From Felis catus (taxonomy: Eukaryota): a stretch of 64,000 nucleotides of DNA. The notes under the pieces are model-generated. The model saw only the letters and a program-made list of their open reading frames with translations. It was not told the origin of the DNA and made no database searches. A program made the position numbers and the translations under genes. The stretch is from NCBI RefSeq assembly GCF_018350175.1, contig NC_058368.1, positions 73,038,001 through 73,102,000 on the forward strand, read 5' to 3'. Position 1 is the first letter of the stretch. The number at the start of each line of letters is the position of its first letter. Shown piece by piece: positions 19,149 to 55,902 of the stretch.

Positions 19149-21739
19149 ACAGAGACAAAAGAAATAAAGCAGAGTCAACAAAGAATCAATCCTTTTAAGG
19201 AAGTAAATTAGAATTATAAAACAGAAAGGAAAACAGACTACTGTGTACAGTCAGTTGTCTCACTAACCCACAGGTAAGGACATCATCAGAAAGATGCTCT
19301 GATGGGAGCTGATTTACCGTTGCCTGTAAATGAGGCAAGAATACAAAGTAATGTAATTTCCTAGATAAGTTGTAAGCAACTATCTCATCAAGGAATTCTG
19401 TTCCTGGAGGGCAATTAGATGAAGAAATACAGCCTTTTCTCTGTCTCAAAACTTCTACTGGGAGCCCAAAGGCTACCACCTGATACACCGTGTGTCTACT
19501 TAGCTTAAAACCAGATGACTGCAGAGAGAAAAAACACCACCCACCACCACCCAATCTCTAAAGGGCTTATCTTGTAACTCAGCATGTTCATCTGGGATGG
19601 TAACTCTTGGTCCATCAATGCATACCTCCTCTAAATTTTCCCACATCAGGACACCTTTACGAAGCATATTTGTTGTGCGACACATTCTGGCAGAGTAGGT
19701 AGGTTTTAGAAAAAAAAAATGGAATTTGACAATGAAAATACATTCATTGATTATAAAAGTATCCAAGACCAATTGTTCTGCCACCTGAGATGAAAACTCA
19801 GGTTGGGCATGGCATTCACTCAAACTCCAAGTTATTACTGAGTGGTATTTTGATTTGAGAACATCACAGGATGGTACAAGTTGATGGAAGAGAGGTAGAA
19901 ATGAAAAGACTGCGAACCTAGTCACACACATCCAAGGGGTCTTTAAAGAGTAACTGAAGTAGAAGCCAAAACAGAGGTGCAACTCATCACATTTTATTGT
20001 AATGGTATCCAAACTTCTCTTGGGAACCACTGTACTGGACGCTCTAAAGAGTTATCACATCTCCTGGAATTTCCCACGTCTTAAGCAGAACTTATGGCCT
20101 CCCCATGATCTGGTATAAATGACTATATAAATTACTAGCAATTGCTCATACTAGAGCATAAGAGAAGCTTAATAAATGGGTGGTACTGTTTGATTTAAAA
20201 TAAAGAGCTGACACTGATAATAGAATAATATTAGTTGTTATAGAATATAGTTTGACTTTAAGTTATGTTCATGCAGTATCAAGGTTTTAAATTAAATTTA
20301 GGTAGTCTGAAATAAAATAGAACACGAACTGAAAATTTCTTGGAAAGATAAATGGTATTTTTTCCCAGTGAAATAACATTTATTTGCCTTCATTTTTTAA
20401 ATGGAATTAATACATTTCTATCTAAATTTAATGGTTTGTTTTGAACTTGTTTTCTGGTATATAAAAAAAGAAAGACTGGCTTGCATACTAATTGGCATAA
20501 TAAAGACAGTAAGATTATTGTACAATTAAGCATTGGCTGGCTTAAAATTGACATTTTTTTTCAAGACAATAGCATCAGACTAAACGATGGTGGATATATG
20601 CAGTTTAATCACTACCAAAAAAAAAAAAAAATACCCATCAACAGATAGAAACTGAGTCTTCAGAATAAAACCATTTTTCTACAAGTAGATTCTTTCAATA
20701 GTTACTAGAAGTAGATTCTTTTAATAGTTTACTTACTGATGAGTGAGTAAACATTGCCGGTTTTTTTTCTTTTTTCCTTTTCTTAGGCATGTGCATTTCG
20801 AATCAATAGAGTCCCCAAGTACCTATCTTGGGCTGAATGAGTACTCTTTCCATCTGTACTTCCATTTCTCATAACTGCTTCCTCTAGGCCACAAGGAAAG
20901 GGAAGAGCTTGCTGCAAGAAATACAGGATTTTGCCAACACGACCAGTCTGCAGTGTTTCTAGAGGGACCCCTTTCAGTCTTCCCATTTCTTTTCTTCCTC
21001 CCTGTTCTTCAAGGGGAGTTAACTGATGTCTCCCCACTCCTGCTCCAATCCCTCAGCCAGTTATCCTTATAACTAAGAGCACAGACACAACTTCGGCCCA
21101 CGTACACACCAGGGGTGGTAATACATTACTTCTGTACCCTCCCCAGAGGTAGAGCCAGGAAGCAGGGAAGCCATGAACCCTGCTTGCTTTTCACACCCCA
21201 CCATCTATCTACCACCCCACCTCATACCCCACCCCTGTTTGCCCAGTGTGCTGCTTCCTTTAATGATGCTCTCAGCTCACTCCATATTACTCCTTTGTAC
21301 GATGGCACCCTTACCCTAAACACTGGTCTGCTTGCCTAGGATGCTAAAAGCTTGCCTACTGCTTGCCAAACCCTTACTTTACTGGACACATCTCCAGCCA
21401 CCTTGTACCTTCCTTCAGTCTAGGGAGTGGGAGAATATGGAAGGAATATGGCAGCATATGGCAGTAGATTAATGACTCCAGCAAGCCCTGAGCCTGAGCC
21501 CCTAGAGTGACGGCTGTCTCAATGAATTATTTATTCCACCTATTTTATGCTGTGGATAATGTCAGAGGGACTACACATGAACTTGTGAGAGATGTGCTCT
21601 TGGTTTCATTAACTGAATAGAGAATATGAAAGATAACAGAAAATTTCAGGATCCATTAAGTAGGTTCAGGACAAATCCCGGTGAAGTAAAACTAATAAGG
21701 AAATTAAATATAGAATGTTAGCACTGAGAGTTCATCTAC

Positions 21740-21897
21740 TGTGATCAATGGATGGGCTTCAGGGGCTCTCTGTGAACCCTGCAACTGTATTCAGGTATAA
21801 TTTTACCTGTAGATGCACTTTTTATGGAGATAATTTTAATATTTAAAATTTTAGTATTCTCAGAAGACAACATGATCTGAAAAAGTTGGAAGTCATT
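21740..21897. mobile_element. MER103C-like hAT fossil
   Basis: atggatgggcttcagggg...gtgaaccc...attctcagaag...aaaaagttggaagtcatt. Confidence 0.6.
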
Positions 21898-21959
21898 CTC
21901 TTCATTCATCTATCTTCTCATTTTATAAATGTTGCCTCCAATGCACAAAGAGATTGTCC

Positions 21960-22520
21960 CAAAATGAAAATATAATTATCCCACTCCCTATTGAAAAGAT
22001 TTCAGTAGGTCCCTACCCTCTCCAGATAAAATCCAAAGCATGACACACTTGGCCTGTGTGGGGATCTGGCCTCAGACACCCCTCCACATTCACACCAACC
22101 ATTCACCAACATGCCTGCCTTTTGCAGACAGACTGAATATTCACAGTTCAACCTCTTTGTGAGCAGCTGCCCCCTTTTCCTACATGACTTCAACGGGTCC
22201 CTGTAGGCTCACCAAGCATCCTTTCCCTTGTAAAACCTTCCTATGGCCTCGAAGCTCCAGTGTCCATTAGGTAACTGTCTCCTTGTTTTCAGCCTGTGAA
22301 TACCTCTCTCATAGCACGTATCTTATCCCACTATTAACATGTATTTTCTTAACTCTGGATTTATCACTCCTGTGGAAGCCCTCATCCCCACCCAGCTCTT
22401 TGAAGGTAGAAGTTTTGTGCTTTCACGTTCCCCAGACCTAACACAGCTCCTGGAACCTTCTAGGTTCTTCACAAATTTTTATTAAACAAATAAACAAACA
22501 AATGAATAAAAATTGAATGA
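21960..22520 (+). mobile_element. L2 3' fragment
   Basis: gataaaatccaaa...ctctttgaaggtagaag...cccagacctaacacag...aatgaataaa. Confidence 0.65.
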
Positions 22521-22903
22521 TAAGATATTAAAGATAGAGCACTGAATATTTTATACAGTCCAAATATTGTATCTTACAAATAAACTAGTTCACCCAAGAT
22601 GCAATGTAGCTAGACAGAGCCAGAACAAGGAACCTGCTTCTGAGTCCAGTGATATTCCTCTTTGGTGTCCTGGTGCTTTATGCCTTTATTCTGAAGAAAA
22701 CATCAGGAGCATTTTTTCTGCATCTTTTAAAAACATAAAATATAACTGCTGCCTCTGCAGACCTCACCAGACATTGACAGCTCTTTCTCACCTTCTCACC
22801 TTCTCTACAAGGCTTACTCCCTGCCTGACCCCTTTTCATGGGATCTGTAATTTGAAAATTGGTTAAGAGTGAGCACATCAGTAGAAAAGCCCTTGATCTT
22901 CAG

Positions 22904-23293
22904 TGGAGAGAGAAAGAGAGGGAAAAGGAGGAGGAGGAGGAAAGGAAGGGGAAGCAGAGGAAGGAGAAGCAGAGGAAGAAGACAGAAGAAGAAGAAGAAG
23001 AAGAAGAAGAAGAAGAAGAAGAAGAAGAAGAAAGGAAGGAAGGAAAAAGGAAGAAGGAGGAGGAGGAGGAGGGGAGGGGGGAGAGGAAGAAGAAGAGGCA
23101 GAGGAAGAAGCAGCAGAGGAGGAGGAAGAAGAAGAAGCAGAGGAGGAGGAGGAGAAGTAGTTGGGGGAGCAGGAGAAGGGGAAGGAAAGGGGAGGGAGGA
23201 AAGGGAGGAAGAAGAAGGAGGAGGAGGAGGAGGAGAGAAGAAAAAGGGAAGAGGAGAGGAAACAAAAGAAGAAAGGAAAGAAGAGGAGAGAAT
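22904..23293. repeat. Polypurine low-complexity tract of about 390 bp (GAA/GGA), including (GAA)16
   Basis: Seen directly; (GAA)16 at 22985-23032. Confidence 0.97.
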
Positions 23294-25525
23294 AATTTTA
23301 GGCAAATTTTCTTAAGATACCAGTTGAAGCCTAATTACCTTTTATATGGAAATTTATAGGCAAATCTTCAGTTATTTATATCTCAAGTCAAAAACAAATC
23401 TCAAGTTATCTCAAGTACAAAGTAAGTTGGGTCACCATTGATCATGGTAATCCAACCATACTTTCTGAAGAACAGTGTTTCAGTATCAAATGAAGATTGA
23501 GCAAGTGTAGAGCAAAGCGATACCCTACAGACACCGTGATGGCCATATGCCAGTGTGCTGGGCTGTCCTGGGCTACTCTGCACTGAGCTTTAATGGCAGT
23601 TCCAAGGGGAGTATCACCAATCCTGCTATGTTTTCATTCCCTCTGCAAACCTTCAGTTGCTTCTCTTCTCCAATTCACTACAACATACAAATCGGACAAG
23701 TAAAGATCGAAATGCATCTTCTCTCTCTGTCATGTTAGTCTGACTATGGTTCATTGCACTACAAGATGCCAAGAAGTAGAATGGACACCAGCATCGAGAG
23801 GAATATAACTGGCCAGATTTGAAGACATTCCATGAGTGCACTGAATCTTAGTCAGAATTTAGAGTGTCCCCAAGGCAGCCTGTCCTTTCTCAACCCCCGT
23901 GTGGTTTGATGCACAGATCCCTCTGCCTCCAGTGCTCTTCGCTGCCCCATGTCCCTTCTCTGAATAACACTGATTTGACCTCATGTCTCCACAGAGAAGT
24001 TACTTCCCCAGGAAGGCTCTTCTAACTCCTCAGGAGAGCTAGAGACCCCCACCCCCACCCCAAGCTGGGTGCTTCCATAATGCCGCCTATAGCACTTGCC
24101 CCTTCCCAAGCTTCCCTCCCAATACATTGTCAGCTACTCAGGAGCAGAGACTATGTTCACAGGAGACTTTCAGAAACATCTGAAAAGTAGATCATTTAAA
24201 CTGTTTGACCAATAAAATTCACACAATTTTATTCTGGATGAGTATCTAGGTAAATGGCATCCCCTCTCAGGAAAAGGGCAGAGATATCCTAGTAATATCA
24301 GTCAGGACTATCTTACAAGTGGACACAACTAAGCACCAAAATCAAAGCAAACATTCTTCAAGAGGCCAATTAGAAGATTTTGAGAAGTATTTAAGGAGCT
24401 TTACCTTTAGCTTCTTTGCTGGTTTAACAAGTTTTAATTCAGCTGACTGCAGGTTGTAGAGAAAAATACTTGAGATATTTAAACTCATAGCAGTGCTCCC
24501 AGTTATAAAGAAATAGGAAAAAAAATGAAAGTAAATGAAAACCGATATGAATGTAGCATCTTTAAAGAATAATAAATTAGCTGGGAACAGCGTCCAAATA
24601 GCAGTTCCCAAGATGTCACTATGTAATTATAGCTCATCAGCGTATGTCTTGCATATTCCAAAATAACCCGTTACACTACCCTCTTTTCTCCCCAATTGGG
24701 GAAGGGAAGGTGACAGCAGGCCTCAAAAATAATAACTAAATGGTTTCTTACTAACAAGGGAGGCTATCAACTTTGAATGTCCAATATTTTCTATAAATAC
24801 ATCACACGCAAAGAAATCTGAAAGCATATTCCTAGAATTCAAATTACCCTTCGATGATTTTCAAGGATTTTCATAATGATTTAGAGACAAAATGATTTTT
24901 CCTGTTGAATTTCAAATAAAGGAAGAGGTTATTACCCTAAAAATAGAGGGTAACTAACAGGAGTTGGGGATACGGAGGAGTCTTTCTGCCTGTCACCTCT
25001 TTGATGTGATTATCCAAAGTGATTCTCAGATTATCCAAAATGAATGGCTTCATTAGCAAGCAATACCAGGAACCATAGAGAGTTGATGTCCACTTCAGTT
25101 CCCTGGTGTTTGACAGCCTGATTATCCCTAGAAGCAGTGGGCTCATGAGTTCACTCAGTGGCAGCTGTGGTGGAGTCCTTGGTAAATTCCAGTGGACAAA
25201 CAGAGCAAAATGTTATAAAGCAGATGCTGATCTTCAGTATCAGATAGTTGGGAAACACTGCTCATCATGGATAGTACAAGGAATATTGCACTGTTTTTAG
25301 TATTTAAATGCTTAGGAAAAAACATTTTAAGGTTTTTACATTTAAAAAGTGAAAATTGTAAATGCTTAGGATGAAATATTTATGTTGCACATGCTAAAAC
25401 TTTTCAGAAGTAATCATTTACCAGCTAAAATGGAAACAAAAATCCAAAATCATTATTTTCTATTTATTATTGCTTGGATCTCTCTCTCTCAAATGATGAA
25501 ACTCAAAAAAAAAATCTTACTTTGT

Positions 25526-25955
25526 TCCAAAGACACCCAGATGGCCTAACAGACACATGAAAAAATGCTAAACATCATTCAACATCAGGGAAATACAAAT
25601 CAAAACCATGATGAGGTACCACCTTACACGTGTCAAAATGGCTAAAATTAACAACTCAGGCAACAACAGATGTTGGTGAGGATGCGGAGAAAGAGGATCT
25701 CTTTCGCACTGCTGGTGGGAATGCAAGCTGATGCAGCCACTCTGGAAAACAGCATGGAGGTTCCTCAAAAAATTAAAAATAGAATTACCCGATGACCCAG
25801 CAATTGCACTACTAGGTATTTATCCAAAGGATACAGGTGTGCTGTTTCAAAGGGATACATGAACCCCAATGTTTATGGCAGCCCTACTGACAATAGCCAA
25901 AGTGTATGGAAAGAGCCCAAATGCCCATCTACTAATGAATGGATAAAGAAGATGT

Positions 25956-26042
<87 letters not shown>

Positions 26043-26470
26043 GAGTATTACTCAGCGATCAAAAAGAATGAAATCTTGCCATTTGCAACAACATGGATAG
26101 AACTGGAGGGTATTATGCTAAGCAAAACTAGTCAGAGAAAGACAAATATCATATGACTTCACTCATATGTGGAATTTAACATACAAAACAGATGAACATA
26201 AAGGCAGGGAGGCAAAAATAATATAAAAACAGACAGGGAGACAAACGAGAAGAGACTCTTAAATACAGAGAACAAACTGGGGGTTGCTGGAGGGGTTTGG
26301 GGTGGGGGATGGGCTAAAAGGGTGAGGGGCACTAAGAAGGGCACTTGTTGGAATGATCTCTGGGTGTTATATGTAAGTGGTGAATCATTAAATTCTATTC
26401 CCGAAATCATTATTACACTATATGTTAACTAATTTGGATGTAAATGCAAAAAAGTTAATAAATTTAAAAA
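25526..26470 (+). mobile_element. 5'-truncated carnivore/felid L1: ORF2 C-terminal remnant plus 3' UTR
   Basis: Translates to [26 protein letters not shown]...[52 protein letters not shown] (ORF2 CCHC region with stops); internal (TA)n(CA)n expansion. Confidence 0.97.
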
Positions 26471-26592
26471 GAAAGAAAGTGAAAGAGAGAGGGAAGGGAG
26501 GGAAGGAGGGAGGGAGGGAGGGAGGGAGGGAGGGAGGGAGGGAGGGAGGAAGGAAGGAAGGAAGGAAGGAAGGAAGGAAGGAAGGAAGGAAA
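26471..26592. repeat. (GGGA)n(GGAA)n tract at the L1 tail
   Basis: Seen directly. Confidence 0.95.
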
Positions 26593-26665
26593 AGGTAGTT
26601 CTATGATACTGGGGCGAGATGTAAACTGGAGCCATCCCAAGCAGACCAAGACAAATGGTCACCCT
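26593..26665. mobile_element. Half of a MER94-like (hAT-Blackjack) fossil, probably transduced by the L1
   Basis: gtaaactggagccatcccaagcagaccaagacaaatggtcaccct resembles one MER94 terminus; the other half is absent locally. Confidence 0.55.
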
Positions 26666-27767
26666 TTCTACAAGGGATTAAAAATAAAAATAAAATTTAA
26701 AAAAGTCTTACTTTGTATCCCATGTTCCTTCTGTCCCTGTAAGGAGCTATATAAAAGGAAATGGTGCCATGATCCCTATCTCTGAGAACCTTCCAGTCTT
26801 ATTGTTTCTGCATGGGCAATTGTTTTAGATAGTCTTCCTGAAACTCCCAACAGGAGTGATTACTTGCAATGGATTTTTTATGCAAATGTAGCACTAAGAA
26901 AGCTTCATGTGCTCTTTTATTAAAGCATGTAATAATGACCCAATATAGCCAAGTATAGCTAAAAATTTAGCATCTACCATACGTTAGGCACTGGGTACTC
27001 AGAAATAACACATTTTCATTGGTATTGGGACTTTTTAAAAACCCTTGATGGCTCATTTTTCCCTATATTGTATTGATGTTTTCATTCCATACAATCTTAG
27101 GAATCAGTGATTTATTTTTTAACAGGAGATTTGATAGATACTCCTGTGAGATTGGGTGGGGTAGAGTTATCTTCATTTTAAAGATGGAGAGATGGAGCAT
27201 GAGCAGTGAGGGATTACATGGTATTATGATTTGATGTGCATAACTAAGATTCAGTCCCAAGTGCTTCTGTAATACCATATTCTCTTCCTCACTCTTCAAA
27301 AATCATGAGGTACTCACAATAGCAATAATATTCTTGTGCATGAAGATTAGAGAGAGATTATAAGATTAATGAATGTCAATATTCTCATTTTATGCCAATT
27401 TTTATTCAAACATACAACTAACAGCTTTTTTTTACCTTATCAGTATTGATAGTTTAAACTCAGTGTATTTTCATGGACTCTGAAATGATATTCTATTTTT
27501 AGACAACAAATATTAGTAGAGATAAAAATATTCCTAGTACAGTGCTTCAGAACATAATATTGCCTTGAATTCATGAACTATCACTAAAACTCCGAGTTTT
27601 TTAAAAAGTAGCCTAGAGGGCAAATCACAATTAACACTCCCACAGAGTGAAATAATTTACTCCCTAGTATATGTCTCTGTTTAAAGTCATAGCAGAATGT
27701 TCAAACTAAAAGACTGGAAGAGAAAAGTTTACTGTCATTTAAGAGCTGAACCAATAGGAAGCTTTAG

Positions 27768-27955
27768 CTCAGGTTTTCCAAATTTGGCTGCATGTCAGAA
27801 ATGCTTGGCATGTGGGGAAGAGGGCTAATAAAAACATATCCACAGGCTACACATCCAGAGATTTTTTTCATCAGATCTGAGGCGGTCCTGGCCACCTGGA
27901 TTTTTAGAGCTCCCTACGTCCTTCTTAGGTACAGCCGGTGTGGGGAACCAGCTTT
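27768..27955. mobile_element. MER5-like hAT fossil
   Basis: caggttttccaaatttggctgcatgtcagaa...ggggaacca. Confidence 0.6.
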
Positions 27956-27957
27956 TG

Positions 27958-28170
27958 GTAGACTGAGATCAGAAGAGTTCGAGTCATAGCTTTGCCATTT
28001 ACCAGTTCTGAAACATTGGGACAGGCAACTTAAGACTGTCTAACCTTCATGATACTCATCTATAAAATGAAGGAAAAAATACTATCCTTGCAAAGGTCTT
28101 ACTAGGATTACATAGGATAATGTAATGTTGGGCACTGATACCAACATAAAATTGATGCTCAAAAGAGGTT
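27958..28170 (+). mobile_element. MIR
   Basis: gagttcgagtcatagctttgccatttaccag...ctcatctataaaatg. Confidence 0.65.
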
Positions 28171-29636
28171 TATGTCCTTTCCTCTTTTTCCTTAAAATTG
28201 GCATCTACTATTGACATTGAGGCATACTTCCTGTTCTATAACCTGTGAAGTAATATTATAGAGACCCCCATTTAAAGCATGGAACTCGACCAAAAACAAA
28301 TGCTCTGCCTGTTTCCGTGGGTTGAGTTATATGGCCACCAGGCCATATGTGTTTGCTGTAGGCAAATTCCAGACACTATAAAAATACTTACACAAACTAA
28401 AACCCAAGGGCCTCTCACATGGCCCAGCATCATTCAGCGTTCCAGCACAACACGATACACGTAAACTGGGTAACTTGAGAAAAGGGGGTTTATAAAAGAA
28501 CCGTTTACAAGAGTCTGGGCAAGGTACACAGAAACCACAAGGGACAGTGACAGTACCCTGGAACTAAAGATGGGGGTCAAAGGGCTACAACCACACCTAA
28601 GCCAAAGGGGTGAGGCAGGGCATGGTTGTTCAGACCTGGAGTCAGAGTTGTCCCACAGGAACCTGGATCAAGGGACACGGCTGGCCCACAGTGACCCTTC
28701 AGGATGACAGTATGAGGCATAGGTCCCTGACCTCACTCTTCTCCCTCCTGCTAGCTGCTTGGTAATGCTCCCCAAAGGTCAGAAGTCAGGACCAGCCTCC
28801 CAGGGATGGGGTGAAGAAGAGTTAAGAGTGGACTTGAGCAGAAAAGGGAATTCATCCCACGTAAATCCTAAGTCATTCATTCAGTATCACAACGAAACAC
28901 GTTCTCTCACCCCAAGTAATTAAAAATAGTTCTAATATTTACTTGTAGCTTTTGAAAGCATTAAAAGAAATCCAATTCATAACCAAAAACACAAATTAAA
29001 ATGCCTTTTCTCTCTTCCTCTGCCATTCACACCTTCCTCAAAATCTCCCTCCAGAATGCCGCCCTCACCGCCCTTTATGTGTGGATTACTTTTTCCTGTA
29101 AGTAAAACTGGCTCCTTCTGGTACAAACTCCCCAACCCTTCGGTTCCCTCCATCCCCAGCTCTGCTTTGCAAATGTGCAGAAACAGAACTGGCAGGCTCA
29201 TTATCTCTTTCAGCAAGCACAGAGGAAGGTGAGTGTAAAGGGAGGGGAACTGCAAGCAGGGACACGTTGGCATGTACTTTGTTTATCTCGGACTTAGAAA
29301 AAAATAGGAGCTCTTCTGTGGACAACACAGCAAAAAGCAAATCTGGGAAGGTCCTCTCTGTGAGCCACTCCTGGCCGTTATTCCCAAGTAACTCATGGTA
29401 ATATAACTACCAACTATATCTGGTACTTGCACTGGAACCAGCACCATTCAATATTTTCACGGGTTTTATTCTCCTTGATTGTCACAAAATAGTCCTGTGA
29501 GGTAAGTAGGAGTTTTTATTCCCTTAAGACTGAGGAATGCTAAATTACTAGATAGAAGAATCACAGTGAAAAGTGTGAAAGGGAAAATGCTAGACAGAAT
29601 TCAGTTAAAAAAAAAGGGTTTAGGGTGCTTACCATG

Positions 29637-29792
29637 TTTTTGTTTGTTTTTTAGAGAGAGACAGAGCATGAGTTGGGGAGAGGGGTAGAAAGAAAGAGGA
29701 ATTTTAGCCAGGGTCCATGCTTAGCATGGAGCTCAATGCAGGGCTCGATCCCATGACACTCAGTGGACTGAGCTACACCACCCAGGTACCTC
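29637..29792 (-). mobile_element. Older, internally deleted CAN-SINE
   Basis: Antisense T tail, gagagacagagcatgag, gggctcgatcccatgac, ccacccaggtacctc. Confidence 0.85.
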
Positions 29793-29800
29793 AAAAAAGG

Positions 29801-29801
<1 letters not shown>

Positions 29802-29854
<53 letters not shown>

Positions 29855-30003
29855 ATACATATATATATACATATATATATACATATATAGGGTATATATA
29901 TATATATACATATATATACATATATATAACCTATATATGTATATATACGTATATATATTTGTCTCTAAGAATTGAAAACTCTCATACATATATACATATA
30001 TAT
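29802..30003. repeat. (TA)n / (TACATATA)n AT-rich repeat
   Basis: Seen directly. Confidence 0.95.
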
Positions 30004-30142
30004 GAAAACACTTATTTTTATTTTGCTTTATTTTTATTTAAAACATACACATATAGTGATTTAAAACATATATATAGTTTTAATTCAAATTATTTTGATT
30101 TATTAAATAATCAAAATAATTTGAGTTAAAACACATATGCAA

Positions 30143-30355
30143 TTTTTTTTAATATTGACTCATTTTTGAGAGAGAGAGAGAGAGACAGAGAGAGAGAGCA
30201 AGTGGGGGAGAGGCAGAGAGAGAAGGAAACACAGAATCTGAAGCAGGATCGAGGCTATCAGCACAGAGCCCAATGTGGGGCTAGAACCCACACACCGTGA
30301 GGTCATGACCTGAGCCAAAGTCAGATGCTCAACCAACTGAGCCACCCCGGCACCC
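30143..30355 (-). mobile_element. CAN-SINE, antisense
   Basis: cacagaatctgaagcagg...actgagccaccccggcaccc. Confidence 0.95.
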
Positions 30356-31029
30356 AACATATATAGTTTTCAATCAATATAAATTCTCATTTCACCTGTT
30401 TTAGAGCATACAAATGGAGATTTCTGGGAAATATAAGAACAAAAATATTTGTTTCCTTCCTGCATTGCCACTCACAAACATTAGCGGAAGTAATTTAAAA
30501 ATAAAATAAAATTGCAATGACAACAATATCAGGAAGCTATGAGAACTCAGTTAGAAAGACTAAGAAGACTAGTGCAAAATACAATAGAATTGGAACAAAA
30601 TGAGAGAACTCATGGGCAATTTATATTTCTCTAGATCTTGACCAAACTGGACATCTAATTAGTGATCTTTTAATTAGAGTGAGAAAGACTGGGGTCAACT
30701 TCTGCTTCCCTGAACAGCACAGGAGGCTGGACTAAAGGTACACGTTGGCCATTTAGATTTTTCCCACTAAGACTCCTAATGCCAAGAAACTTCCCAAAAC
30801 GGAATTGGAAGGGCAGAAGGGAGAGGATCTTCCCCTCTGAAGGCATTGCCCAGACACATCAGATGAATTATAAACACTAAATTACAACATTTTTTAAAAA
30901 TGTGATTTATATGTTCAATAACAACAAGCCTAATCTTTTGAGTGGGTGATCTGCTCACCCCCAAGAGAAAATATAGGGCATAAAAGAGAGAAAGAGAGTC
31001 GGGGAAAGGGACAGACAGAGGCAAAGGTC

Positions 31030-31997
31030 AAAGTAAATACTACATTTCAGGAAAGAATTGCCCCCAATAAACAAAAGCAAATTTAAATCAAATGATACTC
31101 TTCAAGAATCTAAAGGGAATGTGGATTCTGGGCAAAGAATTTAAGAAAGATATGAAAGAGATAAAAGAAGATAAAAGGTAACAAACAAAGATAAGAAGGG
31201 AAATGACCAATTTCAGGAAAGAAATGGAAAACAGCACAGGCAATTTTCATATGAAACCTATATTTGAAACAGCAAAGAGTAGGATATATACTATTGAAAC
31301 CGTTAAGAAACACAAAGGGCAATCTTCAAAAGCAAATTACGTAAAACAAAAATAAAATAGTGAAGGTACAAATTCATTGTAGAGAAAATAATAGACAAGA
31401 AAAAACAAGTTTAAATGTGCAAAACTGATATTACTGAAGAAAAATAATGGAACAGAAAAATTCAGAGATTTAGTGCGAAAAAATCTTTCTTAAATAAAGG
31501 ATAACTTAAAATTAAATAGTCATACTATATTTACAAAGAAATTATGCAGAAATACTAAGATTGAATATTCTGGTGAAATTTCTTGACCTCAAAGCAAAAG
31601 GTGAAATTTCTATTCAAAACTAATGGTTAGAATGATGTCCATAAGCCAGACAATTGATTTGGAACTTGACCACTCCTATTCTAGGAGCTTTGCAACGAAA
31701 CAGTCTGAGATATTTTTCTATCCTCCAGCACCTAATATGTCCTTGGCACAGTGTAATGTAGGAAAAAAATTAGCATTTCAGACAAGTCTTAGATATTTCC
31801 ACTTCAACTATCAATGACTAACTCAGTGGAGAAATACCTTCAAAATTCTAACAGAAAAAAATATATGACTTCCAAACTTTATACTCAGCCATGTCTTTGA
31901 GTCAAATATATAGATAAGAGAAATTAATTTTTAAGCATTCATGGGCATGAGTAATAAATTGGTGATTCTTTAAATTTACATAAATACTATGTGTGTA

Positions 31998-32049
<52 letters not shown>

Positions 32050-44480: not shown

Positions 44481-44681
44481 TGAAACCGTACCATGTCTCT
44501 AAAGGATAAGATTGCGTGTTTATTAAGCATGCTCTTTTAATATATTTCCCATTTTTAAAAGTACCATGTAAGAACAGGAATATTCATGTATTGGGATAAC
44601 AACTAATTTTTGAAGAAAATAAAGCATAGAAAGGAAATTGTCCTAGTGACTCAACCTGCTTAATTAAAACAGCTTCTTTCT

Positions 44682-45193
44682 GAACCTAAATGTCCATCAA
44701 CTGATGAATGGATAAAGAAGTTGTGGTTTATATATACAATGGAATACTACTTGGCAATGAGAAAAAATGAAATCTGGCCATTTGCAGCAACATGGATGGA
44801 ACTGGAGAGTATTATGCTAAGTGAAATAAGTCAGGCAGAGAAAGACAGATACCGTGTGTTTTCACTTATATGTGGATCCTGAGAAACTCAACAGAAGACC
44901 AGCAGGGAGGGGAAGGGGGGAAAAAAAGTTACAGAGGGAAGGAGACAAACCATGAGAGACTCTTAAATACTGAGAACTGAGGGTTCGTGGGGGTTGGTGG
45001 GGAGGGGAAAGTGGGTGATGAGCATTGAGGAGGGCACCTATTGGGATGAACACAGGGTGTTCCATGGAAACCAATTTGACAATAAATTTCATATAAAAAA
45101 TAAAAATAAAATAAAATAAAATAAATGAAATAAAATAAAATAAAATATAAAATAAAATAAAATAAAATAAAATAAAATAAAATAAAATAAAAT
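44682..45193 (+). mobile_element. 5'-truncated felid L1 3' end with (AAAAT)n tail and TSD
   Basis: cctaaatgtccatcaactgatgaatggataaagaag; TSD agcttctttct at 44671-44681 and 45194-45204. Confidence 0.96.
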
Positions 45194-48039
45194 AGCTTCT
45201 TTCTCAGTACAATTGACATTTGTCTTACTTCTCCTCTTGCAGAATCACAATCCACAATGTCTCATATTTTTATGAGAGAAAGACTATAAAGTATAGTTCA
45301 AGAAGTTTTAAGTTTATAATATAAAGTTTTAAGTTCAAGAAGTGAATAATGGAGCATTGTGATTCCCATATTTGGGACTATCCTGGCAAGTTGCAGCTGA
45401 GATGAATTCTAACTTGACCCTTTTCTAGACACAACCATAGAGGAGATGCTTATCTCTCTACATGCCACATTTCTAATCTGAAAATAGGGCCGTTAACCTC
45501 TCCCTTGGTGCTATGGTGAAGATGAAATCAAACACCACAGATAAAACCACTGGCACAGTGGCTAATGTATACTAAATGATATTTTTTTCATCTTCTGCCT
45601 TGTTCCCTGAAACAAAGCAAATAAAAATAAAACCCAGTTTTAAACAACACAGTTTAAAGTCTAAGCTTTTATAACATAACGAGTACTGTCTCCTTGAGAA
45701 TAAATCCTTCAGGAACTCCATTTGAAATGTCCCTAGCCCCTCCCCCGAAGAATATGCAAGCACCCCTTCTCCTTCTCCCAGTGAATACACAGGATGCCTT
45801 CAGAGTCTGCTCCCAAATGTTACACTGTTTACAGAGTTTACACCCTACTGGAAACAGATGGACTCAGGACGTGATGCTCAGGGACCAGGCCTAAAACTGT
45901 ATTGGGTGCTTGACCTAATATATCAGGGAGGAAGCTCTCTACATGGTAAATACCCATTACAAGCATCATTTGAGTCTATTGTGGCTGCAGCTCTATATGT
46001 ATTAAATAATTGTTATTTCCTTCATTCAGTCTGTTCAAATAATAGTCCCTCCTTAGGCCACATGCTGCAGGAAAAATAGGCAATGATTTCAGCAGTCTCC
46101 AGGCATGTCAGCCCCTGAAGAATAAATAACATATTTATCTTTAAAAAATTATGTAGCAGGTTGAAAAAAATGTCATTTTTAACAGCCGGCACCATAGCTC
46201 CCCTAAGGGAGAGAACTGTCTTTAAGAAAATACCTGGATAGACTGCTTTAAGCAGGGAGGAATGACCTGAGGGAATGCTCTATGTGAAGACAGCAAATCC
46301 AAGACTGCTCCATGAGACGTTAACAGAATCTGGGGGGGTGAAGGAGGCATCTAGAGAGGAGAGTGGGCGAGGCATCTGGAAGAGTGGAGGGGACGGTGGA
46401 CAGCAGCAGGACAGAAAGGTTTGATCATGCAGAAAAAAGAAGTGGGTAAAAAAAAACAAAACAAAAAAAAAAAACAACTCCAAGTGGCAAGGAAGTCAGG
46501 GCATTGAGTTATTCACTAAGTCAGAGTTTGGTTCTGCGACATAAACCGCCTTCATCACTGCGAACCTTCAGTAAAGCTGTCATACACACCAATGCCTCGT
46601 TTGAATGGTGGTTTTGGTTTCACTTCTGAGCATGCGAGCGACAGAAAAGGAAGAAGCTCCAGCGACTGAGATAAAAATCAGATGGAGAACTCAGCGGAAA
46701 TATGAAAACACATCTAGGGTGAACATGAGAACATGAGCCCCTAGGAAATCAGAGACACTGGGGGGAGTTGGGACTTTAAGTCAACTTTCTGTACACTTCA
46801 AAGGGACCTAACATAAAGTCTACATGAATGAAAAGAAGCACTCTCCAGTTGACAAGCATAAAAAGAACAGGACAAAGAGGCACTTTCCAAGGGACTTGGG
46901 GAAATGAATTTAGACTTCATCTATTTCTGTTGCAGCCTTGTATTTTTTTCCAGATGCTTGAGCTTTCAAGAGTATGACTTATTATAAAATCATTTTATAT
47001 GCATTCTAAATGAACTTAAGTCACTGTTTTGGTGAAAAGTAAGGCATTCCTTCTATAAGCTATGAACAGAGTGGTGTCAAAACTGAATTTCCTGGATGCA
47101 GGCTCTGAGTGTGCTCAGAAGGCAGTAAGTGTGGCCCATGGTGCCTCCACTGTTTCTTGAACACTTGTATGGAATTAGAAATGGCCACTGAAGGGTGGCT
47201 CCCTCTCTGAAAACCCGACTCAACAGCCCAGCGAAGTATACATGTGTCACACACACAGTATAGCATTTCTGGCCTCACCTCATCTCTCTCTTCACAGGTA
47301 TCCATCCTTCAAAGCAAAGCAACCAAATCCTCACCCCCTCCACCATTCCTCTGACCTACTCCACCATGCTCACCAACAACCTCCTAATTATGCACTTACA
47401 ATCTGTCCTTTGTCCCCATCCCTTTCCTTGTTCCCTTAGTCCCAGAATATTAACAGTAGCCCTGTCATTAAACTAGTCACCCCAGCTGGGAATCCTTGAC
47501 TTTGTTTTTGCTATGCATCCCATTATTACTCTGATCCTAACTTCTCAGTCATTATGTAGTTCTTCTTCCTCCACAAGTATCTGAAATGCTTTGTGTTTCC
47601 AGATCCGGTCCTGCATTCTGTTTGCTTACTCCATATGCATGCCATGCTTCACCTGTCACTGAATACCTCTCCAGATATCTCATCTCTCCCAGATCCTAAC
47701 CTCTACTTCCAATCTCTACTTCCCAAAAGCATGTTGCACAGGTCCCTCTAGGTATCTCATCAGATAACTCAGTATCTCCATGTCTGGACTAATGGAGACA
47801 ACAAGAGACAACCTGCCAGGATTTAGCCTTCCTCCAACCAGGTGCATCTCACAACTATACCAAGGAAACAAAATCAGATATTTGCAAGGCAAAAACAGTA
47901 TCTTCCACTAGCCATATAATAATGGATAAATTCCACCCATATGTGAATTAAGAAGATGCCAGAGATTCCAATCTTGCTGCCCCACTTGTCCCTATATCAT
48001 TATAAGTCATCACTTAAGCAACCATCTGAGCCACCTCTG

Positions 48040-48630
48040 TTTTTTTAAATTTGCATTTAAATTCCATTTAGTTAACGTACAATGTAATATTAGTTTCAGG
48101 TGTACAATATAGTGATTCATCACGTCAACACCCCCTGGCGCTCATCACAAGTGCTCTCCGTAATCCTTATCACCCATGTAACCCCTCCCCTCACCCCCTC
48201 CCTTCTGGTAACTTATGCAGTTATGGGGTCTGGCTAGCCAAGTCCAGTTCCTTCTTTATAGTTAGGAGTCTGTTTCTTCCCCCCTTTTTCTCATTTGTTT
48301 TGTTTCTTAAATTTCACATATGAGTGAAATCATATGGTATTTGTCTTTCTCTGACTGACTTATTTTGCTTAGCATACTATACTCTAGCTCCATCCATGTC
48401 TTTGCAAATGGCAAGATTTTATTCTTTTTTATGGCTGAGTAACATTCCATTGTGTATATATACCACATCTTCTTTATCCATTCATCAGTTGATGGACATT
48501 TGGGATGTTTCCATAGTTCAGCTATTGTAGATAATGCTCTTACAAACATGGGGGTGCAAGTGTACTTTTGAATTAGTATTTTTGTATTCTTTGAGTAAAT
48601 ACCTAGTAGTGCAATTTCTGGATTGTAGGA
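48040..48630 (-). mobile_element. Carnivore L1 3' end, antisense
   Basis: Minus ORF ...WKHPKCPSTDEWIKKMWYIYTMECYSAIKKNK...; T tail at about 48040. Confidence 0.95.
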
Positions 48631-48967
48631 CCATGTCTTATTTAGAAATTATTTCATCTATCTTAATTATAATATCATAATTAACTGAGCAATTGTAACA
48701 ATAATTGATTTCCCTTTTCTTCTAGAAAAATATATCTTTATCTCCACTACATTTGGTGCTCCCTAACAATATATTTAATAGAATGGCTCTGTAGACCAAA
48801 ACTTCCTCATACCCACTCTACTCTCAATGTACTACCCTCAACATTTATCTTAAGCTCAGCCACTAAGAGCTTCCCAAAGTTGTGGTTCCTAAAATTGCAG
48901 TTCTCAAAATGCATTCTACATACACAAGTCCTCATAAGGTCCTCCATTTTTAAAATTATATTCATAA

Positions 48968-49134
48968 TAAAAAAAACAGATGAACATAGGGGAAGAGAAG
49001 GAAAAATAAGATAAAAACAGAGAGGGAGGCAAACCAAAGAGAACAAACTGAGGGTTGCTGGAGGGGATGTAGGTGGGGGCATGGGCTAAATGGGTGATGG
49101 GCATTAAACAGGGCACTTGTTGGGATGAGTACTG
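48968..49134 (+). mobile_element. Felid L1 3' UTR fragment lacking its tail
   Basis: acagatgaacatagggg...gagaacaaactgagggttgctggagggg...gggcacttgttgggatgag; homologous to 26188-26360. Confidence 0.9.
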
Positions 49135-49246
49135 ACCACACAGAGCCTACTTGGGATTCTCTGTCTCCCTCTCTCTACTTCTCCCCTGTTTGTGTGCTCT
49201 CACTCTCTCTCTCTCTCTGTCTCTCTCAAAAATAAATAAATTTTAA
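49132..49246 (+). mobile_element. CAN-SINE 3' half fused to the L1 fragment
   Basis: cacagagcctacttgggattctctgtctccc...caaaaataaataaa. Confidence 0.9.
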
Positions 49247-53408: not shown

Positions 53409-53633
53409 ATATAAGATTTTTTTAATGTTTTTTTTTAATTTATTTTTGACAGAGAGAGAGACAGAGCATGAGCAGGGGAGGGGCAGAGAGAGAGGGAGAC
53501 ACAGAATCTGAAGCAGGCTCCAGGCTCCGAGCTGTCAGCACAGAGCCTGATGCAGGGCTCGAACTCACGGACTGTGAGGTCATGACCTGAGCCGAAGTCG
53601 GTGGCTTAACCGACTGAGCCACCCAAGTGCCCC
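53409..53633 (-). mobile_element. CAN-SINE, antisense, with TSD
   Basis: TSD tacttcctttttt at 53396-53408 and 53634-53646. Confidence 0.96.
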
Positions 53634-53866: not shown

Positions 53867-54813
53867 GCCCCCCCCTCACAATAACATTTAGAGAATCAAA
53901 AGTACTTCAAAACCCTCAGAAGTATTATCTAACTTGTAAATAGTCACCTCCTCACACTGTAGCGACCACTTTTTGCTTATTGATGGAGTAAAATATATTT
54001 CTTTCATTTCATATATGTGAATGGGTGGTGTCTTCTCATTTTTATAAGTGTGTCCCCTTGGACATTTTTCCCTATAGTCTGAATTTGGCAGTTCTCTTTT
54101 CCCGTTGCAGTGCCCATAAGTGCCAAGGTCAGCCCCATGGCATGGTACTAACACCACCACACCTGCTCCCCTACCAGCCCAGCCTCTGGACGCAGGAGTC
54201 CCCAACCCTGAGGTCCAGAGCAACAGCTCATCTTTGGCTCTCTGGACCCAATCAACTTTGGTTTTGTGCCAGCTACCAATTTTCCCATTAAATTCTAGTG
54301 CTGTCCCTGAATCCATCCCGAACACAGCACCGTGTTTCTCTGCATACGCAAGTCTTGGCTGTGGCGTGAACTTACGTCTGGAGTGAGTGATAGGGGACAA
54401 CCTTGAGCTAGGTCCAAGGCCACATCACCCTTCCCTAGCAGTTTCACTGCCTTGTCCCTCCCCATCCTCCCTTTAAATCACATCATTGCTCTACCCTACA
54501 CAGTTGTCACCAGCCCTAGAGACAACCTAGCAGTGGCAGAAAGCCACCCTGCCAGTGAGTACTGCTCGGTGGGCCAATCCAGACCTATATAGTTGGTAAT
54601 TGTCCTTTAGTGGAACGTATACTGTTGCAGAAATCAAATAGAAGTCATCTAACCAATAACATTCTAGAAAACAACATCATTCTTTTCTCCTCTGTATCAC
54701 TTTCACATAAAAATTTTGCCTGTCATCTTTGGGCCATGCTAATCTTCTCAAATTGTTACAATTTTAGTAAATGTGCTGCAGAAGCAAGTGCTCACAGGAA
54801 AAAAAATTTTAAC

Positions 54814-54826
54814 TTTTTTTTTTTTT

Positions 54827-54862
<36 letters not shown>

Positions 54863-55034
54863 TGGAGCATGAGCAGAGGAGGGGCAGAGAGAGAGGGAGA
54901 CACAGAATCTGAAGCAGGCTCCAGGCTCTGAGCTGTCAGCACAGAGCCCGACATGGGGTTCAAACTCATGGACCGTGAGACTAGGACCTGAGCTGAAGTC
55001 AGACGCTCAACCAACCAAGCCACCCAGGCACCCC
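54814..55034 (-). mobile_element. CAN-SINE, antisense
   Basis: gacacagaatctgaagcaggctccaggctctgagctgtcagc...cacccaggcacccc. Confidence 0.95.
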
Positions 55035-55902
55035 TTACATAAAAATTTTTAAAAATCAAAACAAAGAGAGGGTTGAAATTGAACAGTATTATTTTTTAGT
55101 AAGCTGCATGTTTTCTTGGGTCTGATTCTAAAAGCAGAAAAAACATATGCTCTTGCTAAAAAAGGTGATTGATACAGATTCTCTAACTTTTTGGCTACAA
55201 ACTATGGGAAAGTACTTACCGACTCACTAACTCAAAATAGCCTTATGAATTCCCTACATTCTTATGTGAAGTATCATTTAAAAGGTAAACTAGGCATTTT
55301 TCTTCTTTTGAAATTTATAAATTTCAGGGCATTTTATACACTGGGCTTGATCTTTTCTTCATAGCAGAGAAACCTTCTGAACCTTCTGAATATGCTAGCA
55401 AGTTCTTCAGTGTTCCACTGAGAGCCCTAAATACAGAAGGTCTGGGAGAAGAAAAGTGGGGAAGTTTGCATGGTGTTGCTAAGAGAAACCTAGTGGAGTT
55501 TATTACTTCCCTGTCTCAAGAATCCCTGTTCACCAAAATATATAAATATAAATTAAAATAGATGGATTGATAAATAAAACTTTCTAACACAAGATAATTA
55601 TCAACCACAAGCTAAAGGGCTGCACATGACATTAAGCTACGCTGGAGAAACTGAGGCCAAAATTTCAAGAACCTAATGTGAATATAGTGGGATCCTAAGA
55701 ATGAGGCTGCAAAAAAAGACAGCACTCAGAAGCCGATGGCTACAGTGCGCCTGGAAGGATTCACGTTCCCAAGCAGGTGTCTGCCCCCTCACTCTGGTTC
55801 TGACCACCATGATCAGCCACCCCTCCTGCTGTCCACTCGGGCTTTTCTGGCCACAACCTGGAAGCACTTGAAAGAGGAGAGAAATGCTTCAGAGTCGCTG
55901 CA

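Follow-up and report, generated by a model that had tools for sequence, protein, structure and literature searches.

How did a short stretch of non-L1 DNA come to lie between the tail of an L1 fragment and the far copy of a direct repeat that opens at the fragment's 5' edge? We addressed this question in a window (the whole stretch of DNA that was analysed, 64 kb in length) that is mammalian and carries SINEs and L1s of carnivore type; a crude exon scan returned 21 candidates in it. The feature is real, and most likely represents an ordinary short partnered L1 3' transduction. The evidence begins with the repeat, which we interpret as a target-site duplication (TSD), and with the element that it encloses.

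The outer direct repeat and the L1 fragment

25505-25525, + strand: left copy of the outer repeat, an A10 run (25505-25514) followed by TCTTACTTTGT (25515-25525), with CTC just 5'
26699-26716, + strand: right copy of the outer repeat, A6 G TCTTACTTTGT, located by direct-repeat search and exact 11-mer search
25526-26470, + strand: 5'-truncated and decayed carnivore L1 with the ORF2 C-terminus, the 3' UTR and its own AATAAA (26457-26462), ending in AAATTTAAAAA, delimited by protein match and by alignment with L1s of the window
25958-26037, + strand: (TA)20(CA)20 microsatellite expanded within the L1, located by repeat search

All of the strings and coordinates of the original prediction are present in the sequence, and the direct repeat encloses both the L1 and the tag that follows it: with the A run counted in, positions 25508-25525 and 26699-26716 are identical at 17 of 18 bases, at a spacing of 1191 bp. 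The exact 11-mer TCTTACTTTGT has just two sites on both strands of the 64 kb, 25515-25525 and 26706-26716. The pairing is not random. Five of 1500 random mock junctions reached at least 17/18 within a 600-bp zone, all of them inside one SINE near 53490-53533, and 17/18 was reached by 6 of 1500 when the zone spanned 2100 bp. No A-led mock junction attained 17/18 or more (0/711). Repeat-masked control blocks of 30 nt, for which a 30-nt uncertainty in the junction was allowed and repeats making up 11% of the window were masked, yielded 17/18 once in 1794 (a CT run) and 16/18 in 4 of 1794.

The /GA variant is counted among L1-endonuclease-type sites. The left copy carries such a site: CTC|A10 at 25502-25514 corresponds to 5'-TTTT/GA on the bottom strand, one base off the L1-endonuclease nick consensus, 5'-TTTTT/AA, given in the accessible text of two reports (PMC13141329, PMC7980453). 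Because the match is rare in the controls, because of its position and because a nick-type site lies at the left copy, the outer repeat is best read as a TSD of 18-21 bp, one pair surrounding the L1 and the non-L1 DNA together.

As originally predicted, the left repeat does not recur at the tail of the L1. Comparison of the 5' flank with the L1-tail zone (26430-26600) returned a 7-nt C+A run as its best match and no copy of the outer TSD. When one test was applied to both, the outer pair scored 15.5, against 7 for the tail of the L1 itself. Fifteen further retro-elements of the window served as a positive control, and 8 of them scored at least 12 for a TSD directly at the tail. The lack of the outer TSD at the L1's own tail is weak evidence by itself because the other 7 of these 15 controls are also without a strong one. 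The L1 3' fragment at 44682-45194 (+), within 44666-45205, served as an internal control; a 16/17 TSD directly adjoins its (AAAAT)n tail.

The enclosed element combines ORF2p-derived sequence with an L1 3' UTR. Its translation matches residues 1089-1208 of human ORF2p (E 1.8e-52), interrupted by 3 in-frame stops, and residues 1206-1225 match weakly in another frame (E 0.064). The 3' part aligns with other L1s of the window at 71-84%, and alignment with the L1 copy at 48040-48450 (-) sets the 3' end at about 26450-26470. The original prediction started the L1 at 25526. The search places the L1 start at or before 25548; the protein search in the second frame did not reach a base-level boundary, and positions 25526-25547 are assigned to the L1 through a putative ORF2p motif read in another frame. 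The sequence shows no T run at 25526, and we therefore rejected an insertion on the minus strand between the two repeats. The related L1 3' fragment at 48040-48630 (-) shows an internal gap when aligned with the query L1, and no TSD was detected for it. At 48960-49240, an L1 3' UTR fragment abuts a 3' SINE half near 49135, and no L1 tail separates the two.

The purine tract, the tag and the second poly(A) end

26466-26593, + strand: purine tract of 128 nt composed of A5, AAAG, GGGA and GGAA, with a single T, located by repeat search
26590-26676, + strand: non-L1 tag of 83-87 nt, unique in the window, with an A-led start and an end made of the GGTCACCCT motif (26657-26665) plus 11 nt
26677-26704, + strand: A-rich end with ATTAAA (26677), AATAAA (26683 and 26689), then TTT and A6, delimited by sequence reading

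Between the L1 and the right copy of the repeat, these parts follow one another in the order expected of a transcript that ends twice. The 128-nt purine tract would be the decayed poly(A) tail of a source L1; a long internal poly(A) would seed a tract of this length better than A5 would. Another purine tract of the window, at 22910-23251, spans about 340 bp of GAA, GAG and AGG units. The tag has a GC content of 49% over 26594-26676 (83 nt) and, its A-rich tail excepted, no similar stretch elsewhere in the 64-kb window, which bears out the roughly 85 bp of non-L1 DNA that had been predicted here. A search of indexed sequence gave nothing resembling the tag or the interval 23000-29500. A small-RNA origin was rejected for the tag, as the Rfam search gave no match inside it at E<=10 and its single match (E 2.6) lay outside. 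Elsewhere in the window, a U6 pseudogene (54692-54787, minus strand; Rfam, 46.2 bits) starts about 25 nt past the A run of a same-strand SINE (54800-55036). The poly(A) signals of the A-rich end lie 16, 10 and 4 nt before 26698, two of them 10-30 nt ahead of the second A tail. The pure-A outer tail that remains is at most 6 nt long and overlaps the TSD.

The GGTCACCCT motif at 26657-26665 is a putative MER94/hAT-Blackjack end, and the tag would presumably be the right-hand half of a MER94 ending at 26665, in line with the original prediction of a MER94-like half. MER94 would have terminal inverted repeats at both ends and an 8-bp TSD, of which at most one end could lie here. In the accessible part of PMC5753468 (Table 5), MER94 figures among the non-autonomous hAT elements. 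Metagenomes scanned with a 19-nt motif gave 13 loci, none of which resembled the tag upstream of the motif (0/13; shuffle p 0.38-1.0). No clear partner terminal repeat was seen within about 300 bp at these 13 loci, one of which had a 3-mismatch match. A partner terminal repeat for the tag itself found no exact match within 20000-32000, the best being a 2-mismatch 12-mer at 23428. Four of the metagenome loci (L001, L003, L009 and L011; AT-rich, around 240-330) have in common a TTTCCAGG-rich stretch that ends in the searched terminal motif, perhaps the ends of an unrelated hAT-like element. If the MER94 label of the tag is right, the other half of the element is expected upstream of the source L1.

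Origin of the tag

We consider it probable that a single partnered short L1 3' transduction brought in the L1 and the tag together. Transcription of a full-length source L1 elsewhere would have run past the element's poly(A) signal and genomic A tail and taken in some 100 nt of flanking DNA, and the RNA would have been cleaved 10-16 nt past ATTAAA/AATAAA and polyadenylated. Following a nick of the target by ORF2p at CTC|AAAA, reverse transcription would have copied the tail, the tag and the source tail, then roughly 950 nt of L1, before stopping within ORF2, and would have left behind the 18-21-bp duplication. Later, the internal A tail may have decayed to the AAAG/GGGA/GGAA tract and the outer tail may have shrunk. 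This origin is favored because the parts stand in the order L1, internal tail, unique tag, signal, tail and TSD, because a TSD-like repeat flanks the L1 on its 5' side and directly follows an A run, and because the outer pair outscores the L1's own tail in the TSD test. It is also favored because the signals at 10 and 16 nt fall in the published 10-30 nt range, which, in the accessible text of a study of human colorectal tumors, held for the signals upstream of 274 of 349 transduction ends (PMC13009371). Against it, the second end is more like the L1's own end than expected, and 35 of 4103 mock transcript ends score as well as it does (15 of 4103 finish in AAATTT). The shortness of the outer A tail and the scarcity of mappable transductions among dimorphic dog L1s (about 1.8%) also count against it. 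The original prediction of a 3' transduction is supported in part: it agrees with the TSD, the order of the parts and the spacing of the signals, and it overlooked an inner near-repeat that allows a nested origin.

26457-26471, + strand: copy 1 of a candidate inner duplication, AATAAATTTAAAAAG, which is the L1's own end, with TT just 5', located by motif search
26689-26705, + strand: copy 2 of the candidate inner duplication, AATAAAATTTAAAAAAG, overlapping the outer TSD, located by motif search

The two copies, AATAAATTTAAAAAG and AATAAAATTTAAAAAAG, differ by no substitutions and by one A in each of two A runs, and a homopolymer-tolerant version of the motif has these two sites only in the window. 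The shorter string AAATTTAAAAA has 3 sites in the 64 kb against 0.3 expected, a count that 1 of 100 shuffles reached: one at 26460 (the end of this L1), one at 48042 on the minus strand (the end of the related L1) and one at 26693 (before the right TSD). The core motif is present in just one of the window's 22 A-rich tracts, the one before the right TSD. Equal matches 150-350 bp downstream were found for 11 of 1692 A/T-rich 15-mers (4 of 255 clusters), which we read as SINE tails or SINE-edge repeats. The inner near-repeat may be an inner TSD, in which case the tag could have entered the end of the L1 as a second insertion.

Under such a two-step history, which we regard as possible but unlikely, the L1 would have inserted alone, ending in AATAAATTTAAAAAA with its TSD attached, and 26472-26688 would have come later. 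The later insert would have been, no more probably, an orphan transduction or an RNA 3' fragment made of the purine tract, the tag and a short A tail. Its entry by a TT|AATA nick in the L1 end, with about 15-17 bp duplicated, is tentative to the same degree. In a variant, the nesting would have taken place once in the source L1 and the tag would have been carried by its progeny. The freedom of the inner pair from substitutions, the confinement of its motif to two sites and the rarity of equal downstream matches speak for nesting, as does the ordinary L1, its TSD alongside, that remains once 26472-26688 is taken out. Further, the length of the inner repeat fits the median of 15 bp given for dog TSDs in the accessible text of PMC13141329/PMC7980453. 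However, a rare non-L1 insertion must then hit a 20-bp target, for which the rough prior may lie tens of times below that of a partnered transduction. The inner repeat consists of A and T alone and was noticed after the fact; any poly(A) end would be expected to supply 11 of its 15 nt (AATAAA plus A5). Nesting also requires that the purine tract arose by truncation inside the source tail or from an A5 seed. One Alu study, in its accessible text, saw no enrichment near existing Alus once nick-site preference was corrected (PMC3783187), and the available part of PMC3415434 contains nothing on nested insertion.

Our ranking of a single transduction as probable and of nesting as unlikely follows from our own estimates, namely that the likelihood ratio favors nesting by about 10-30, that the prior runs against it by about 30-100:1, and the argument from the tract. 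The nested reading would be disfavored if the source flank, behind an L1 end of the same family, itself ends in AATAAAATTT without an inner duplication. Were there a real second TSD, which seems improbable, an orphan transduction cut inside the source A tail would have landed in the last 20 bases of the L1 and would mimic a partnered event; should mimicry of this kind be common, single-genome counts of ancient 3' transductions are too high. Alternatively, and sharing that same low likelihood, the tag may have nested once in an active source, and would then mark a small lineage of felid L1s whose 3' end is extended. Under both the transduction and the nested models, it was the L1 machinery that imported the tag.

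Two other origins are far less credible. Bipartite L1 chimeras are a known kind of insertion, and one could have formed here in a single event if an unrelated polyadenylated RNA, whose end is now the tag, was the first template and the reverse transcriptase then jumped to an L1 RNA tail, or if the RNAs were ligated first. A chimera likewise yields a single outer TSD. Known chimeras usually have the cellular RNA 5' of the L1, but here the L1 is 5', with a complete 3' end and tail, as read-through gives directly, and the tag is without an Rfam match; we find this origin very unlikely. Least probable of all is a tag native to the locus (such as what is left of a MER94 after the insertion deleted its other half) beside a direct repeat that arose by chance: although old elements are often without a clear TSD, as in 7/15 controls, a chance repeat would be expected in about 1 of 1800 blocks or fewer, this one marks the 5' edge of the L1, directly follows an A run and has an endonuclease-type site, and 20000-32000 holds no exact partner terminal repeat.

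The insertion appears to be ancient. Within about 430 bp the L1 has accumulated three stops and one frameshift or more, and it is 84% identical over 160 bp to its nearest copy in the window; the insertion is therefore old. It probably predates the living felids, all of which may carry it. With an insertion of this age, the tag at the source is likely to be well diverged, rather than the 'high-identity' copy originally expected, and the empty site is therefore to be sought outside Felidae.

Comparison with known transductions

Because 3' transductions commonly accompany the copying of L1s and are well described in people, other primates and dogs, one more carries little weight alone. Through its tag, an old active carnivore L1 and its sibling insertions could be traced, and the site could act as a presence/absence marker among feliform lineages. 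Our literature search, whose coverage left out most subscription journals, found no survey of felid L1 transductions. Moran in 1999 and Goodier and Pickeral in 2000 reportedly described partnered L1 3' transduction, and El-Sawy and Deininger are said to have described tandem Alu insertions in 2005. In human colorectal tumors, 248 of 349 transductions were shorter than 100 bp and short tags often had poly(A) on both sides, according to the accessible text of PMC13009371. Validated primate germline tags ranged from 51 to 1570 bp (PMC4862182, in the part available). In dogs, about 1.8% of dimorphic L1s had a mappable transduction and most of these were 'parentless', as stated in the available text of PMC13141329 and PMC7980453.

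Three known systems bear comparison with the locus. The likeness to MER94 is tentative and concerns the tag, which may be the right-hand half of that element. An orphan transduction or retro-fragment in the tail of an element would share with it the unique sequence, the poly(A) signal, the tail and the candidate 15-17-bp inner duplication; the difference is that the inner duplication is here imperfect and A/T-only. Orphan 3' transductions are defined in the accessible text of PMC13009371. The partnered L1 3' transduction, our preferred reading, matches in its 5'-truncated L1, internal tail, unique tag of less than 100 bp and second tail, in the signal 10-30 nt before the end, in the one TSD pair round all of these parts and in the endonuclease-type nick. 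The cat locus differs from it in being old, with an internal tail that is now a 128-nt purine microsatellite and an outer tail of at most 6 A, and in having a second end that resembles the L1's own end.
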